This document shows, piece after piece, positions 3,328-62,735 of a stretch of DNA of 64,000 nucleotides (within the stretch, counting starts at the first letter, position 1; every line of letters starts with the position of its first letter). This DNA is from Octopus vulgaris (Eukaryota). The notes below the pieces were generated by a model. That model was given only the letters and a program-made list of their open reading frames with translations. It was not told where the DNA came from and searched no databases. The stretch spans positions 3,906,001 through 3,970,000 of the forward strand of contig OX597829.1 of assembly GCA_951406725.2 (NCBI GenBank). The letters run 5' to 3'. The translations under genes and the position numbers were made by a program.

Positions 3328-3329
<2 letters not shown>

Positions 3330-3912
3330 TTACTTGAAATATATTCGTCACGTATTTCAACTGCTAAAGGCAAAAACCCTGCAGTTACCGTGGAGAGAAA
3401 GAATCTCTCTTATGGTAAAAAGGTGTAAAAATACCCCGTTTGTTCAGTCTCGCCCTCTCTCGGGAAACTGAGATATCGATGTTTCGGGTTTGTTGACTCT
3501 TGTCGATCAGATGTACCTGAGAGGGGCAACCCTGAACGAACCGACAAAAGTTATAAGCTTTATATATAATTCAGCCAACACATTGACTGAGATGCGCTAG
3601 AAGATCGCCCGATCGAGATAAATAACGAAGTAATGGCGCTAAGCAGTGTTTACGTATAATCACAATTTAGGTTAGTTGAAATATATTTGTCACATATTCC
3701 AACTGCTAAAGGCAAATACACTGCAGTTACCGTGGAGAAAAAAAATCTCTCTTATGGTAACAAGGTGTGGAAACACGTCGTTCGTTCAGTGTCGTCCTCT
3801 CTCGGGAATCTGAGACATCAATGTTTTCACACCTTTTTACCATAAGAGAATTTTTCTTCACGGTAAGTGCAGTGTATTTGCCTTTAGCTGTTGAAATATG
3901 TGACAGACATAT
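3328..3912. mobile_element. Direct plus inverted repeat unit, resembling a Penelope-like pseudo-LTR arrangement
   Basis: 3328-3484 is repeated directly at 3670-3825. 3822-3912 is the reverse complement of about 3681-3775. The unit starts at a (TA)n tract. Confidence 0.55.
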
Positions 3913-4428: not shown

Positions 4429-5115
4429 TAGGGTGAGATGGGTAAATTGTCGCTGTTTTATATATTTTGCGCATGCACATTGTGTGTTTTTCGTTTTGTT
4501 GATTACAAGTATAATAGGGCCTCGTCTGTGAGAAACATAGCCCCACGACGCAGTTCACTCCGTCATAAATTTGGAAACGACATGCTGTATTGCTTGGCAT
4601 TCACACCGGAAGTTTCAATACGTGCATGATACCGAGAGTGATAAAAATCAAACATCCAGTCAACATCATGTTGTTTGGAGTGATCGCTAGTGATGGTGTC
4701 GTTATGCTTCCATTCATCTTCCAACACTGCCTCAGACTCAACACGGAGGCCTACATCAAGTGCCTGGAGGAGGTCAAGAGGGTGGTTGCTAGAAGCCCTT
4801 ATGTCTGGCAACAGGACTCTGCACCATGCAACACACGCAGGAGAACCCAGTCATGGCTGTCAGACAATTTCTGCGACTACATCACTCCTAACATCTGGCC
4901 TCCTAACTCTCCAGACTGCAACCCCCTTGATTATTATGTGTGGGGCGCAGTTGAGCAAGAGACCAACAAAACTCCTTGTAACATCAAAGAGGAACTGAAG
5001 GCAAGGATTATGGCAGCATTCACCAACTTAAACAAGGATACCGTCCAGAAGAGTTGCAGGAGATTCTGAAGTCGTCTGGCGGCCGTGGTTGATGCCAATG
5101 GCGATTTTATTGAAT
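4429..5115 (+). mobile_element. Tc1/mariner transposon remnant, DD37D (maT-like) catalytic domain
   Basis: ORF 4590-5069 contains YVWQQDSAP...WPPNSPDCNPLDYYVWG, with 37 residues between the second and third Asp. The N-terminal part is missing. Confidence 0.88.
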
Positions 5116-5324
5116 GAATTTACTCTTTAGTATTTCAAGATATTTTTATGTAATATTGGTATTCTTTTTGTTCTCTGTTTTATAAGGGAGTACCTAAGCA
5201 AAATAACACATCAAGTTGCGTTCGTCTATTTTGACACAGAAAGATAAACTTAGCTGTACATTTATACTGTATCATTGAGCTAGTAGACATTATATGTAAG
5301 AGACATAAGACTTGTCAGTCCGCT

Positions 5325-8272: not shown

Positions 8273-8379
8273 TTATATAAATAAAGATAAAATCGTTAAT
8301 TTAAAAATAAAATAACGATTTTATCAAGTGGTCAGCATTGAATAAAAATAACCTTCAAAGATAATAATTATTAAAATTA

Positions 8380-8522
8380 AAATTAGGGTATCTACGAGAT
8401 ACCACCATGCTGAATATAGCAGCCATGGTCTGACTTTAAAACCACTGACAAATAAGGTGGTTTTAGAGTCAGATCATGGCTGCTATTTTCAGCATGGTGG
8501 TATCTCGTAGATACCCTAATTT
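8380..8522. repeat. Long inverted repeat (about 66-bp arms, 11-nt spacer)
   Basis: aattagggtatctacgagataccacc...aaaaccac / gtggtttt...ggtggtatctcgtagataccctaatt; three mismatches counted by eye. Confidence 0.93.
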
Positions 8523-8543
8523 ATAATTATATATATATATATA

Positions 8544-14749: not shown

Positions 14750-15820
14750 GTGCGCGCCGGCACCCGTTGGAGTTTCGTTTTCACCGAACGCATCGAGCAG
14801 ACGCATTACATTAAGTTTTGCCAAAAGAGTGGTGATACTCAAGCTCAAACCAGCCAGCAAATTCGACTGGCCTTTGGCTATTATAACCAGATCAAGGATT
14901 GGTTGAACCACTTCAAACATGGCTGCACCTCAGTGGTGAACGTGATGCGTTCAGGCAGGCCATCTACAATGGCGAAACGAGGAACCGATTGGAAAAGTTC
15001 AGCGAATAATCATGGAAGACCGTTCTGTAACAATCGAGGAAATTGCTCACGAATAAGCACGGGATCAGTGCATTCCATTTTAAGGGAGGATTTGTGCATG
15101 CGGAGAGCGTCTGCGAAATTCGTCCCCCGAGGTGCTGGCGGAACAGCTCCTCGGCAACTCCGCGTGGAAATTGTTCTGGATATGTTGGACTGTGACTTTA
15201 TGACTTTATCACTGGTGATGAGACATGGCTTTGTGGTCTCTGCTCGTTGCGTTCGATCATCTTGCGTGGAAAAGAAAAATCCGACGAGTGCGCGCGACAC
15301 GTATATACTCTAGGCGTAAAAGTCAGGAACTGCTGTACCTTACCAGCGCGAAAATGTTCACGCATGCGCTGGAAGGGTGGCGTCATCTCCCGCACAAAGG
15401 ATTTTGCTCATGTAGAATTAGTTTTAGTATAAACTAGATACGGATCTTTTCGGTTTGACCGGCAGTTTTTAACATAATTTCTAGGTAACTAAAAATTTTA
15501 AACTTCGTATACTGGTAGAATGTGTTTATAAAACATCTTTTTCTCTTGGCTTTATTGAGAAAATTCTATAGTTTGTAAGATATTTGTTGTTTTTTTTCTT
15601 CAATTTCAACCAATCAATGACCGTCTATTGAGGTGAAAACATTCTGTGCCGTATGAATATGTCCCTCGTTTAAGAAACTGATTGGGTTTATTTACATTTG
15701 TGAAGAAAAAAAGATACCCTTCCTAGGGTCAATATTATGGGTGACAATTTCATATGACACCTCTAGAAAAAACTGCCGTTCAAACCGAAAAGATCCCCGG
15801 ATACTTTTTGAACGCACCTT
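14750..15820 (+). mobile_element. mariner transposon remnant (HTH region to first catalytic Asp), interrupted by a MITE
   Basis: RIEQTHYIKFCQK...RSGRPST, SVHSILREDL.MRRASAKFVPR and FITGDETW (15206-15229) lie in shifted frames. A TIR-like ccggatactttttgaacgcacct is at 15797-15820. Confidence 0.8.
15442..15796 (+). mobile_element. MITE family M1 (GGATCTTTTCGGTTTGA TIRs; Merlin-like)
   Basis: About 27-bp TIRs; diverged 8-bp TSD ctagatac/ccggatac; internally deleted relative to the 58506 copy. Confidence 0.85.
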
Positions 15821-17747: not shown

Positions 17748-17750
<3 letters not shown>

Positions 17751-17932
17751 CTTTATTTAAAAGCAGCAGAAATTTAACAAAAGCTGTTACTCGGAGTTTC
17801 ACGTTCCCGTTCGTCCGACGAACGGTAACGTGTGTTACATTTCTGCTGCTTTTAAATAAGGCATATTACTCTACCTCTGGTATTTGAGTACTCTTTTTTC
17901 CACCTTGTTTCACATTTATGTGTTTACTCCGG
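17748..17932. mobile_element. Head-to-head inverted short repeat centred on a hammerhead-like motif
   Basis: Outer arms ttatttaaaagcagcagaaat / atttctgctgcttttaaataa; inner arms cacgttcccgttcgtc / gacgaacggtaacgtg; flanked by (TA)n. Confidence 0.7.
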
Positions 17933-33814: not shown

Positions 33815-34589
33815 TGGGCTCCGTTTGGGCAGGCATCTAAAAATGTTTGTGCATCTTGATGCTGACATAAGTTCCTTACTTTTCCTGAAGAGAAGGCGGC
33901 ATAATGCACTCCTTATTCCTTCGAAACATATGTCGAAAATAAAATATAGGAATTTTGTTAATTCGTCATTCAACTCCATTCTTTCATTTATTTGTATTCA
34001 AAAAAACACACAAATTTCCACACGATAGCACGTGATCTCTGCCCTAGGCATGTAGCTTCAACCGTGTTTTTCTGACGTGAATTTGCTACCCAGGTATCGG
34101 TTAACCGAATTATCCATAATAAGATAATTCATTCAACTACTCAATATATATATATATATATAATATGCGTTCGTATGGGAGAGACAGGTGGGGAGGAGAA
34201 AGAAAGAGTTGGTGTATGTACATTTATGTATGTTTGTTTATGCGATGTGAATGGTGATACTTTTTTGACGAAAGCAACGCATTTATGAGCATCAGGCGAA
34301 CGTAGGCAACGATTGAATGTCGTCGTCATTTGAACTTGGAACTTAAATGACATGTACCATAAAGCTATTTTCATCTGCCTTTGGTACCGACTTCGGCAAT
34401 CCACCCCTCAGGACGTTCACTCCTGGTACGCTGGTATAATTTTTATGAATAGCGTCTCTATGTGCATGTTCTATAATATTTGTTTCGTCTTGCTTTCTAT
34501 GCCTGTTCTATTAACCAGCTACAAATTTCATCATTAACACCATGTGTTTTTGAGATTGTAGATGGAGCAATTTTATTGTCAAAAGAACG

Positions 34590-43249: not shown

Positions 43250-43575
43250 ACGGTAGTGTTAGCTTCTGTTGATGTAAAAACCATGAGAGCAATGTGAAAA
43301 TGCACCTTAAGATTTAGTCACACAATAAATATAAGGTGTACTGGGAAGGAACCGACGAATTCTATTCGATTAGATCACAAGCTGTGACAAAAGAACTTTG
43401 TCAAACCAATATAACTAATTAGTAATCAAATTGATTAATTTTATAAAACTGAAGCGAAATACCAAAAGGCTTTTTCAAGTGAATGTATGGTCTTTCCAGA
43501 ATCCCTTAAAATTCATAACAAACTTCTGTTTTAGAAAATCACTATTTTTAAATCTCACAACAAGAGATATTCAAC

Positions 43576-43826
43576 AACAGTGCTTTGGAGTAAAGATTGT
43601 TTGCCAACATAACATGGCAGTCCTGGTTTAGGACGAATGTTGTTGTAATTTAGCCACAGGAGTCTAGGGTTGCTAGATTCCCTTATTCGAAAATGTAAGG
43701 ACACAGATCGTGTCATATAGCCAGCTGGAGACGATGTCTCCTGGGGCTAAATTACAGCAACGTTCATCCTAAACCAGGACTGCCATGTTATGTGTTGGCA
43801 AACAATCTTTACTCCAAAGTTCTGTT
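43576..43826. mobile_element. Element with an inverted duplication (about 87-bp arms) around a structured core related to the HHR element at 60027
   Basis: 43576-43662 is the reverse complement of 43738-43826. 43663-43755 aligns with 60069-60180. Confidence 0.75.
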
Positions 43827-43969
43827 TGTTGGGAGTTTACTGACAAAACACTGTTCTTGCTTCTCTTTCTTTAATTACTATACTTGGAAAACATTGAGCA
43901 GCATTAACATAAAGTTTGAAAACTAATATATCATTTAAATAATAATGCCTAATTTCACTAAATTTTATT

Positions 43970-44044
43970 TTAACTATTTTTTTCTTCTTTTTTTACAGGT
44001 AAGTGATACGAATTATTTCCGAAATTGTCTATTGGAAGGTAAGT
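43970..44044 (+). other. Candidate recursive splice site (3'ss abutting 5'ss) with a 40-nt RS-exon/microexon
   Basis: Long polypyrimidine tract, then tacag|GTAAGT (AG at 43997-43998), 40 nt, and gaag|GTAAGT (44039-44044). ctaat/cactaaa branch-like motifs lie upstream. Confidence 0.6.
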
Positions 44045-44584
44045 GTTTGTGTTTTATTTAAATATAATATTGTTCCGTTGAAGTCGGACATATAAGGTTG
44101 TCTCCATTATCGTTATTATATTTGGAGTTGTTTACTGTAAGATTAAGATAATTCTATGTCTGCCATCTTATCAATAGAGCGACACTTAATACGCTTGTTG
44201 TGCTTGGCTCTTGCTAATGAACAACTCATCCAGCTTCGTTTTGTCGTAAATAAATAAAATCCGAGACTATAACAACATTTATGTTTCCATTTCGTTATTT
44301 TACGAAAACAGAATAAATAAAATAAAGTAAAAAATTAAAAAAGAGACAAACTAAAGGAAAATTCTTGGCATTTATCCACTAAATCGTTTCTTTTTCTCTT
44401 ATTCTTTATTCGTGAAATGATTTTAAAAATAAGTAATTCATTACTTTTTCAGCTATGCTGTATTTAAATTTTAACATACAATTTTCCTTCACTTTGTCAT
44501 GATTCCACTTTATCGCTGTTTGCATTTCGGTTCCGTTTCCTTCTCTCTTTCTTTTTTCTTTTCTTTTTTTTCTTGCTTTTCTTT

Positions 44585-56243: not shown

Positions 56244-56980
56244 CGTGTATGTACACCCGTATGGATACTGACACACACTCACTAATACGTTTTTAAACTC
56301 GTTTAAATATCAATTACATATTGTTTTAAAGTATAGATACTCGCCAGAATCAACACACACACACACACACACATCTTGCTATTGGAAGTGATAGGATCAG
56401 TATAGTTTTGAAGGTTATGCTTTGAAGTTTTCTTGTAGAGAGATGGGTTTAATCAATATTGATTCTTATTTTTAACACTAAAGTATTATTTATGAATTAT
56501 TAGTGGCTTATTTACTACGTTGACCCCCAAAGCGTGTGTTTCTCTAAGTCCTATTGACTCCTAGAAATGTGAAGGTAAATTTGATCTTCATGAATGTGAC
56601 TTCGTTACGTAAAAGAATACACGTACACACTCACACACAGGCCAAATCAAAAATATAACAACAAAAAAATGAGGATGAAACGTCAATTAGACATAAACGA
56701 TAAATCTATTAGATTGATGTCCGGTGAAAGTTTTAAGTGGGGAAATAGGAGTGGAAATAACGTTTCGAGTATGGCTCTTCGTTGGAAAGAGAAAAAAGAC
56801 CAGAGGGGAGTTGAAGGAGGCTATATACACACACACACACTCTCTCTCTCTCTCTCTGCATCTCTCTCTTTCTCTCATCAATAGTTATCCGGACTGTTGC
56901 CATAATAACAAATCTAAAGCACGCAGAGTGAAGCCACTTGGCGCAGATTGCCCTTAAAGATTGTTGTACATGTGCACTAA

Positions 56981-57648
56981 GTTTTAACGTTCTAGCTCAC
57001 TTTCGCTGTTTACAGCAGTGCTTGGAAGGAACATGTGTAGCATATGATCGTCGCATTGACCATGACAGAGAAAGTTGTCATGGCGAAACCTGCTCAGAGA
57101 CCTACGCAAAGTTGCAGAAAGTGTATGGAGAGGAGTGTATGAGCTGCATACAAGTGTACGAGTGGTTCAGACGTTTCCAAGATGGCCCCAAAAATGTCGA
57201 TATTGATGAACGTTCTAGGAGACCCGCAACCAGCAGAACTGAGAAAAACATTGCAGTTGTGCGTGCAGCTGTGAGGGGAAAACCGTCGAATCACCATCCG
57301 TGAGTTATTAGAGGATGTACAGATTAGTTATGGTTCAGTTTAGTCCATTATCACTGAAGATTTGGGTATGAGAGGTGTGTCTTCTAAGTTTGTGCCCAAA
57401 CTGCTTTCAGCTGACCAAAAAGACACTAGGGCTTCAGTTGCACAAGATCTCCTTGATTGTATCCAGAAAGATTAAAAGCTTTTGAAAACTTTGCGTAGGC
57501 CGCTGAGCAGGTGTCGCCAAGCTTTTGGCAAAATCTGATGCAGATTCTCTACTCAACTTTCTGTCATGGTCAATACGACGACCACACTTTACACATCTTC
57601 ATTCCAAGCGCTATTGTAAACAGCGGATGTGAGCTAGAACATTAAAAC
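56981..57648 (+). mobile_element. Internally deleted mariner derivative with about 95-bp inverted ends
   Basis: ETYAKLQKVYGEECMS..QVYEWFRRFQDG..DDERS.RP, then RRITIREL...EDLGMR.VSSKFVPKLL. 56981-57077 is inverted at 57554-57648. Confidence 0.85.
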
Positions 57649-58505: not shown

Positions 58506-58914
58506 GGATCTTTTCGGTTTGAACGGCAGTTTTTAACATAATTTCTAGGTAACTAAAAAATTTTAAACTTCGTATACTGGTAGAATGTGTTTATAAAACA
58601 TCTTTTTCTCATGGCTTTATTGAGAAAATTCTATAGTTTGTAAGATATTTGTTGTTTTTCTTCTTCAATTTCTGCAATTTCAACCAGTCAGTGACGTCTA
58701 TTGAGGTGAAAACATTCTGTGTCGTATGAATATGTCCCTCGTTTAAGAAGCAGATTGGGTTTATTTACATTTGTGAGGAAAAAAATATATCCTCCCCCCA
58801 CCCCTAACCCTAAAACAGATTGAAATGCAATAGATCGATTCTAGAGTCATAATTATGGGTGACAATTTCATGTGATACCGTTAGAAAAAACTGCCGGTCA
58901 AACCGAAAAGATCC
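58506..58914 (+). mobile_element. MITE family M1 (Merlin-like), most complete copy
   Basis: GGATCTTTTCGGTTTGA...TCAAACCGAAAAGATCC; exact 8-bp TSD aaaaatcc (58498-58505 and 58915-58922). Confidence 0.92.
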
Positions 58915-59795: not shown

Positions 59796-59860
<65 letters not shown>

Positions 59861-60026
59861 CTACGTACTTACCTGATCTACATAATCGATTATCTGTAAA
59901 TTGGTTCTAAACTTCCTGTTTACAAAAAAAAGAAGATTAAGATGGAAATTTGCTCTCAATCAATACTCCGTTTATTTATTTATTTTTTTTATTTTTCACT
60001 TCATTTATTTATTTCACTATATTGTT

Positions 60027-60075
60027 ACCCTGGACTGATGACGGGCAAGACCCAGAAACATGCATGTCTTCGGGT
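60027..60075 (+). ncRNA. Type-I hammerhead ribozyme with palindromic stem III
   Basis: ACCCtGGA-CTGATGA-cGGG(caaga)CCCa-GAA-ACATGCATGT-C-TTCGGGT: intact CUGAUGA and GAAA core, GUC triplet at 60066-60068, perfect palindrome ACATGCATGT. Confidence 0.78.
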
Positions 60076-60868
60076 GCTAATCCTAGCTGGTGGGGGTGCT
60101 TGCCTCCCCTTCGCAAATATAAGGACACAGGAAATGTGTCAAAGCCGACAGGAAGCGTCGATGCTTCCTAGGGCTAAATAGCGGTGGTGTAATTCCCTTT
60201 ACGGCACACTCACGTTATGTTGACAGTATACAACCACTCTATCGCTCCACCACCACTCATGTCTCTTTGAGACATTTACAAATTCAATATTTCTAATTCA
60301 TTTATATCGATTTATCGATATGACTGTGTGTGTGTGTGTGTGGCATGTATGTGATCAAGACAGCTGAAACTTTGCAAATCTTTACTCTGAATTGGTTTCT
60401 AATTGTTTGCTTGTGAGAGCGAGAAAGAAAAGGAGGTGAGTGTGTCTTGTCGGGCGCTGCTCAAGCTAAAGAAAAAAATTCCGGTGTAGACGTCCCTTGA
60501 CGAATGTGAGAATGTTTAGGTAGAAAGCAACACATCATCCAATCGTTATTGGCTGCAGAGGATTTCTTGGGAGTGGTACGAGGTGATGGTTATAGTCGCT
60601 GGGTTTGACTCATTAGGAAACAAATATCGCCATGAAAGATAACCGAGCCACAAAATTCGGTTAAAATGTGATGAGGAAAAGAGGGCAGATTGTGGTATGC
60701 GTCTCAAATAGAGCTGTTAAATTGAGGACCTGGAACGAGACTCATGCTCTCTTGATAACCTCATAAGTCTGCTAATGTCCGATATGTGGAGTTTTGAATT
60801 GGTAGCATTTGCAACTTCAAATTGCTTCCAAATTACACAGACACCCCCCACACACACACATACCTACC

Positions 60869-62424: not shown

Positions 62425-62735
62425 CGAGTACAGGACACCACAAATAAACGTAGAACACAACGAGAGACGAGAACATAAAATCAAACAAGGAAACGGACTT
62501 TTTTTAAACAACGAAAAAACAGAGTACAGGACAAACAATACAAGGAAAATACCCCTTCATCAGCTGTCCCTGGTTCGACTCAAAGTGTGTTTCGAAGGTA
62601 AGGACAGAACACAGTCGAAACAATCCTTCCTGCAAAAGGAATTAAATAAAATTCTTTTGCAGAGGGGTAAAACAAGTGACAAAAACAGGACCTAAAAACA
62701 ATACAAATGAAGATAAAACAGTACAATAAAACTGT

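Follow-up and report, generated by a model that had tools for sequence, protein, structure and literature searches.

The question raised by the 60-kb region of this locus is whether a hammerhead ribozyme motif heads a mobile element there and, if so, what kind of element it is, how it was inserted, and whether the motif can be expected to cleave. The window, i.e. the whole 64,000-nt stretch of Octopus vulgaris DNA that was analyzed, is AT-rich, microsatellite-rich animal DNA with many dispersed repeats and mariner-type relics; its SINE-like repeats may resemble those of octopus. Tc1/mariner-type transposase relics are located at 4569–5117 and 56932–57303 (DDE_3 weak, E 0.0037; HTH_48, E 1e-7). 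A MITE-like element with 28-bp terminal inverted repeats occurs twice, at 15442–15796 and 58506–58914, and a near-perfect fold-back element is located at 8372–8531.

The extent of the element was read from contigs of four public runs aligned at 80% likeness to positions 59860–60324 (2338, 3827, 469, and 59 contigs placed). Contig cover began in the bin 60020–35, at about 60026, and ended near 60298; the depth over the left flank was 0 in all four runs. By this cover, the hammerhead-headed element spans 60026–60298 of the + strand (273 bp), and not 60027–60250 as proposed by an earlier, sequence-only reading. Its GC content is 47%, against 20% in its left flank. Cover of the element next to a bare left flank indicates that it is a copy of a high-copy family. 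The 27 contigs with loose ends behind 60298 disagree with one another there (agreement 0.46), which fits a common 3' end located in unrelated flanks. Single contigs spanned the hammerhead into the body (contig records 1–3 and 25), and the table of local rearrangements contained one go-back of about 40 nt within the element. Summed depth over the hammerhead core was 2% (run X1) and 8% (run X7) of the body peak and rose from 5' to 3', in keeping with 5' truncation of family copies; summed depth is not equal to copy number, and dips also result from changes private to the 60-kb copy, from divergence, and from heads that cannot be aligned. Comparison of the flanks of 60026–60298 revealed no clear target-site duplication, and a 9-nt AT-rich flank match located 17 nt from the left end was not accepted as one. 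The runs containing this stretch carry four organism codes and belong to 9 studies, with at most 0.67 of its words in any run. Contigs give no level, strand, or ends, so that no expression was deduced from the two runs with family contigs guessed to be RNA; the different depth ratio across the cut site in the runs guessed to be RNA is explained by the mix of subfamilies. The features discussed below are the following.

60026–60298, + strand: whole insertion, read as a 5'-truncated copy of a high-copy repeat (contig cover, GC, flanks).
60026–60028, + strand: UAC bulge of stem I; the distal stem I arm found upstream in the family is absent in the 60-kb copy.
60029–60074, + strand: stem I, 6 bp (60029–34 with 60069–74), from the descriptor; U.G at 60031/60072, U-A in most of the family.
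60035–60058, + strand: core CUGAUGA, stem II (three G-C pairs, 5-nt loop, C.A at its base), and GAAA, from the sequence.
60058–60068, + strand: palindromic stem III and GUC triplet, with the predicted cut after 60068 (sequence, duplex energy).
60089–60175, + strand: body hairpins A (about 60089–109), B (60124–140), and C (60143–175), from folding z scores; B and C also in the 43.7-kb copy.
60206–60227, + strand: hairpin D, 7 bp in the family majority, two pairs broken in the 60-kb copy (contig letters, loose ends).
60255–60298, + strand: terminal tail of about 44 nt with hairpin E (60259–275), from loose ends behind 60254 and 60298 and from alignment with the 43-kb copy.
43663–43831, + strand: second, diverged body copy lacking the hammerhead, 5'-truncated at the equivalent of about 60090 (BLAST, local alignment).
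43531–43662, – strand: inverted, further truncated copy with a full tail, adjoining the 5' end of the second copy (arm complementarity, tail alignment).

The motif at 60026–60075 contains the parts of a type I hammerhead (CUGANGA core, GAAA, NUH triplet, and stems I to III in type I order). CUGAUGA is located at 60035–41, GAAA at 60055–58, a 10-nt palindrome at 60058–67, and GUC at 60066–68, where the sequence-only reading had placed an intact core, triplet, and palindrome. The C-A closing pair that it had reported for stem II corresponds to C60042 opposite A60054, a mismatch in place of the 10.1–11.1 pair or, on an alternative reading, extra nucleotides flanking a G-C pair. With this mismatch allowed and a stem I of at least 4 bp, the descriptor matched twice in the window (33885 and 60035) and in none of 150 local dinucleotide shuffles. 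Owing to the C.A mismatch, the 60035 motif fails the strict descriptor, whose only match in the window is at 33885; the claim that the 60-kb motif is the best hammerhead in the window is thus arguable. Stem III had been proposed to close on a 2-nt loop as a monomer or to form 10 bp as a dimer. A dimer is indeed possible (palindrome duplex of –13.3 kcal/mol), but it is not forced, as 3 bp with a 4-nt loop fits the monomer.

The ribozyme of the 60-kb copy is predicted to be weak. Its distal stem I arm appears to have been lost by 5' truncation inside its own ribozyme, stem I contains a U.G pair, and the fold of lowest predicted energy (–14.8) differs from the hammerhead, which scores –6.7, with the proximal stem I pairs formed in less than 1%. 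For these reasons weak activity is expected and the copy is probably weak or inactive, although the folding program ignores the contacts of the hammerhead core and its preference is not decisive. We regard efficient cleavage by this copy as rather unlikely. Rfam reported no family at the gathering threshold anywhere in the window. At E ≤ 10, positions 59950–60320 gave no hammerhead model and two chance matches, and the best 150 of 397 matches in the whole window were exclusively driven by microsatellites. Pattern scans for the motif gave no match in viral contigs, metagenome contigs, or prokaryote genomes. Cleavage is documented for natural hammerheads in which a U.U mismatch occupies the base of stem II (PMC7229834, PMC3088659), and invertebrate retrozyme hammerheads with 2-bp stems cleave as monomers (PMC7229834, PMC7761336); eight of nine predicted Xenopus retrozymes gave no cleavage product (10.64898/2026.07.22.740005).

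The ribozyme is probably better in the family than in the 60-kb copy. The substitution 60072 G>A, present in 96–100% of depth in four of four runs, gives stem I a U-A pair in place of U.G and thus six regular pairs. In run X7, 15 contigs extend beyond 60026 by a loose end (median 19 letters, agreement 0.66), which was compared by eye with 60076–60097. Read in this way, the low-agreement consensus would pair at 19 of its last 22 letters (18 with the letter of the 60-kb copy at 60080), with two G.U pairs, two bulges, and one 2×2 loop, leaving UAC as a bulge. The family ribozyme accordingly looks extended and retrozyme-like, with a 6-bp stem I, a UAC bulge, and a long distal stem whose arm was identified by eye. 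This arm, absent from the 60-kb copy, would close the stem I bulge for a tertiary contact between loop 1 and loop 2. A loose end before 60089 (22 contigs, agreement 0.78) contains the 3' half of a different hammerhead, consisting of a 6-nt palindrome, GUC, and another 6-nt stem I strand, followed by the same U-GC and the common body. The restoration of U-A, the pairing of the upstream arm, and the presence of a second head on the same body suggest that the family ribozyme is under selection. Among the best 40 of 68 other-letter rows, none fell in 60020–60068, and, judging from the change counts per run, C>G is excluded at 60042 in all four runs, as are A>G and A>T at 60054 in run X1. C.A at 60042/60054 is thus probably the majority state of the heads that align, i.e. 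a subfamily state; a hidden C>T at 60042 in family heads would be compatible with the listed rows.

The enrichment of the window in hammerhead relics was assessed with a second descriptor. Three motifs with a perfect core were obtained (32489, 33885, and 60035; mean of 0.02 and maximum of 1 in 100 shuffles), and four if one core mismatch was allowed (addition of 29146; shuffle mean of 0.48, maximum of 3). The window is enriched in hammerhead relics: the comparison with shuffled controls that had been suggested as a check gave, at the scale of the window, 3–4 motifs against 0.02–0.48 expected. The density is lower than the proposed one motif per 8 kb, since 3–4 motifs pass, about one per 16–20 kb. 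Among the seven other motifs proposed, those at 29.1 and 32.5 kb, with a mismatch in the core or the palindrome of each, were recovered by the relaxed descriptor, the one at 39.7 kb only if stem I was not demanded, and the remaining four by none. The motif at 33880–33943 (+ strand) has a perfect core, a 5-bp stem II with a long loop, an 8-nt palindromic stem III, GUC, and a 5-bp stem I; its region folds no better than shuffles. At 62563 (– strand), CUGAUGA is followed by a short G-rich/C-rich stem with no GAAA in place, a likely broken hammerhead relic. A near-perfect fold-back at about 17750–17870 contains a decayed hammerhead-like motif on the – strand between its arms.

Downstream of the hammerhead, the three hairpins previously named were found in the sequence. 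The description of the element as highly structured holds for 60089–60180 (z = –3.6, 0 of 200 shuffles) but not for 60161–60298 (z = –0.95); for the whole element, z was –2.3 on the + strand and –2.2 on the – strand. Folding of the two window copies yields hairpins B and C in each; hairpin A is not in the lowest-energy fold of the 43-kb copy. Double-sided changes between the window copies were observed twice in hairpin C and, by inspection, once each in D and E, which, with two copies only, is support rather than a covariation test. Contig letters at 60205, 60208, and 60209, in hairpin D, differ from the 60-kb copy in 85–99% of depth, and the equivalent of D in the 43.8-kb copy has 5 bp. The tail 60255–60298 is likely to be the start region of reverse transcription.

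The element appears to be non-coding, as had been claimed. A 47-codon frame begins at the ATG of the core (60038). Coding from this ATG was rejected on the basis of the flat distribution of the 39 listed substitution sites over codon positions (11/16/12), the frame-breaking indels of 1, 2, and 5 nt segregating at 60198–205 in the contigs, and the lack of a Pfam match in the frames of the element. No Pfam match to a PLE (Penelope-like element) reverse transcriptase or to GIY-YIG was obtained in the element or among the 26 window frames scanned.

The second copy, at 43663–43831, matches the 60-kb body with 74% identity over 72 nt by BLAST, and its local alignment score of 117 exceeds the maximum of 74 in 500 shuffles. 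Two further candidate copies, at 4.6 kb (score 86.5) and 54 kb (score 78), were discarded, because the alignments were gappy and involved a transposase relic and low-complexity DNA. The arms of the 43-kb copy are 93–94% complementary, with 75 nt between them. The alignment of the tail (60255–60300) with the outer part of the left arm has a score reached by 3 of 2000 shuffles, against 1031 of 2000 for the right arm, to which the tail does not align. The arm-to-arm alignment contains a 13-nt gap. The right arm may retain a deleted remnant of the tail, so that the one-sidedness concerns only the complete tail of about 40 bp. For that complete tail, the 43-kb copy has the 30–40-bp tail at one end only that is characteristic of PLE insertions. 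The common 3' end and variable 5' truncation of such insertions were found in the contig cover and in the alignment of the 43-kb copy. Their third mark, an adjacent inverted 5'-truncated copy, was found in the 43-kb copy and in 8 of the 11 joints listed from contigs, and is absent from the 60-kb copy. Downstream of the 43-kb copy, at 43976–44050 (+ strand), a pyrimidine tract and AG directly precede one GTAAGT, and GTAAGT occurs again about 38 nt further on. We take this to resemble a site of recursive splicing containing a short cryptic exon; if so, the region would belong to a long intron on the + strand.

The 8 inverted joints, which connect opposite strands, all involve different pairs of places; the three others are skips, and no joint of a 3' end to a head (head-to-tail) is present among the 11 listed. 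The offsets of the inverted joints are 78, 132, 99, 186, 78, 156, 75, and 78, so that four of eight fall within 4 nt (chance of 0.004–0.016 under three after-the-fact nulls), and the 75-nt spacer of the 43-kb copy adds to the cluster. A spacer of 75–78 nt in head-to-head insertions may be regarded as a weak lead. Its generality did not extend to other repeats. A repeat at 3328–3484 and 3670–3912, present as a partial direct copy plus an inverted pair and possibly a PLE-type insertion, gave 76 by seed chain at 3.7 kb, but its arms extend inward and leave about 46 nt. The inverted repeat at 8.4 kb has about 11 nt between its arms. The lower place of each joint was read, from the joint table, as the start of the direct copy. 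Two of the eight lower places, 60069 and 60071, coincide with the predicted cut and weakly hint at cleaved templates. Two other starts, at 60026, equal the end of the 60-kb copy itself and may reflect the edge of the reference.

Taken together, the motif above chance, the repeat nature of the element, the common 3' end, the variable 5' ends, the head-to-head copies, and the one-sided complete tail speak for a reading, which we consider quite probable, of 60026–60298 as one copy, truncated at its 5' end, of a high-copy non-coding repeat with a type I hammerhead motif at its head. The likely agent of insertion is a PLE reverse transcriptase/endonuclease, and the ribozyme is probably weak or inactive here. 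Insertion of the PLE type is proposed because the inverted arm and one-sided full tail of the 43-kb copy reproduce the published PLE layout. As to the source of these copies, we somewhat favor a short non-autonomous unit. A PLE protein would bind the hairpin-rich RNA downstream of the hammerhead, cut AT-rich DNA, and prime reverse transcription at either end of the tail (near 60254 or near 60298). Copying toward the 5' end would mostly halt within 100–250 nt, and a second cDNA or a fold-back would often add an inverted, shorter copy. For the 60-kb copy, reverse transcription would have proceeded just past the ribozyme core. In the source RNA, the extended hammerhead would cut after the equivalent of 60068, as a monomer or as a dimer formed through the palindrome, and thereby trim or release the RNA.

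The source could instead be the terminal repeat (pLTR end) of an autonomous coding PLE, the end of the ORF being located upstream of the lost arm, an alternative that we consider plausible, if on balance doubtful. Most PLE insertions are 5'-truncated solo termini (10.64898/2026.07.22.740005), the anole PLE has a hammerhead about 100–200 nt upstream of the start of reverse transcription (PMC11167929), and canonical hammerheads occur in some plant PLEs (PMC4209133). However, the anole ORF starts inside the hammerhead (PMC11167929), whereas the 47-codon frame from 60038 has no coding signal. Animal canonical hammerheads have, moreover, been reported mostly in retrozymes.

A further possible source is a solo monomer of a classical non-LTR retrozyme, whose tandem units would be transcribed, cut by the hammerhead, circularized by a host ligase, and re-inserted from circles. 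Such an origin is unlikely in our judgment, even though the motif resembles an extended canonical-type hammerhead with a 6-bp stem I and a long distal stem that pairs with itself by eye. The 273 bp, 47% GC, and non-coding status, figures of one truncated copy and not of a full unit, compare with 150–450 bp and less than 50% GC for retrozymes (PMC7229834). Solo monomers are common (10.64898/2026.07.22.740005), and the two joint starts at the predicted cut also weakly point this way. On the other hand, no second unit adjoins either window copy, the 3' flanks are heterogeneous in addition to the missing head-to-tail joint, and most of the contig cover lacks the ribozyme. The retrozyme-like reading of the locus therefore stands for a hammerhead-headed, non-coding, multi-copy repeat of retroelement type with a link to PLEs, and not for a tandem unit. 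A minority of tandem arrays could exist elsewhere in the genome, 360 further loose-end rows lying beyond those listed. This alternative overlaps with PLE-mediated insertion of a non-coding repeat if a retrozyme uses PLE machinery.

A MITE-like DNA transposon or a SINE placed next to a hammerhead by chance is highly improbable: the 43-kb copy alone, with arms of about 90 bp, does resemble a MITE, but the inner arm boundaries differ in all eight inverted joints, an inverted arm is lacking in the 60-kb copy, hammerhead and body are joined within single contigs, and a tRNA-like head was looked for and not found. A chance motif in non-coding DNA is hardly credible, since the failed strict descriptor, the lack of an Rfam hammerhead match, and the non-hammerhead lowest-energy fold are set against 0 matching shuffles of 150, the stem I restored at the family level, and the second independent head.

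Returning to the PLE-inserted non-coding repeat, its closest counterparts are PLE insertions, for which an adjacent inverted truncated copy and a tail complete at one end have been described (Craig et al., 2021, PMC8557442), the tail being located between two internal start sites of reverse transcription downstream of the hammerhead (Frangieh et al., 2024, PMC11167929). In the latter work, both strands of AT-rich DNA are cut, and insertion in vitro does not depend on hammerhead cleavage (PMC11167929). As in the descriptions of these insertions (PMC8557442, PMC11167929), the octopus family combines a structured 3' end downstream of a hammerhead with variable 5' truncation, an inverted truncated neighbor copy, a 30–40-bp tail complete at one end, and an AT-rich site. 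Unlike those PLEs, no ORF starting in or after the hammerhead was found, the ribozyme is extended and not minimal, and the element is known from truncated copies alone. Published animal PLE hammerheads are of the minimal type and carry one extra base after A9 (PMC4209133, consensus in its supplement). The element shares with the published ones a G-C pair that follows the extra nucleotide after A9, a palindromic stem III, and large dispersed families (PMC4209133). The animal PLE hammerheads usually have a long stem II and a short stem I (PMC4209133), which argues against our favored reading, since the octopus motif has a short stem II (3 bp), a 6-bp stem I with a bulge and, in the family, a long extension, and an additional A before GAAA that is missing from the published consensus.

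The resemblance to metazoan non-LTR retrozymes (Cervera and de la Peña, 2020, PMC7229834; Li et al., 2026, 10.64898/2026.07.22.740005), resides in a canonical-type type I hammerhead, a non-coding sequence of a few hundred bases with less than 50% GC, and dispersed monomers. The element differs from them by the lack of tandem units in the window and among the listed joints, the PLE-type scars, the 10-nt palindrome of stem III, and a C.A mismatch in place of the U.U of axolotl HHR_Amex2, which still cleaves weakly with a mismatch at the base of stem II (PMC7229834). The 60-kb element also resembles the Schistosoma mansoni Sm-alpha hammerhead, with which it shares a 6-bp stem I followed by a UAC bulge, a C...A loop II, and a palindromic stem III. 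Unlike Sm-alpha, a tandem, promoter-bearing SINE-like repeat (PMC6765202), it displays no visible promoter.

The locus itself is mostly ordinary debris, hammerheads in PLE ends and in retrozymes being well described across invertebrates. Relics from several PLE families are the norm in invertebrate genomes (PMC4209133, PMC7229834), and 235 Rfam hammerhead hits were reported for a squid genome (PMC6962438). Penelope-like elements account for 6.83% of the Octopus vulgaris genome, and the available portions of that report and its supplement do not mention ribozymes (PMC13282606). Our literature search found no description of the 60-kb family; repeat libraries, outside that search, may carry it under a generic name. 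Retrozymes have been argued to derive from pLTRs (Li et al., 10.64898/2026.07.22.740005). According to reviews, animal retrozymes show no motif revealing an autonomous partner (PMC7761336), and support for PLEs as this partner consists so far of co-occurrence and phylogeny (10.64898/2026.07.22.740005). We tentatively raise, as the less probable of our proposals, a non-autonomous family combining an extended hammerhead of the retrozyme type (natural C.A at the base of stem II, interchangeable heads) with PLE insertion scars and a fixed ruler of 75–78 nt (four of eight joints and the 43-kb copy). If true, it would provide structural evidence for the open proposal that PLEs mobilize animal retrozymes. 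If the parent is non-coding, the tail and inverted arms would link PLE integration to an element with a canonical hammerhead, and a spacer of constant length would limit the ways in which head-to-head copies could be made by the PLE protein. The element appears to insert like a PLE terminus and to carry a ribozyme that looks like that of a retrozyme, and its family should be useful as a test case for the link between PLEs and retrozymes.
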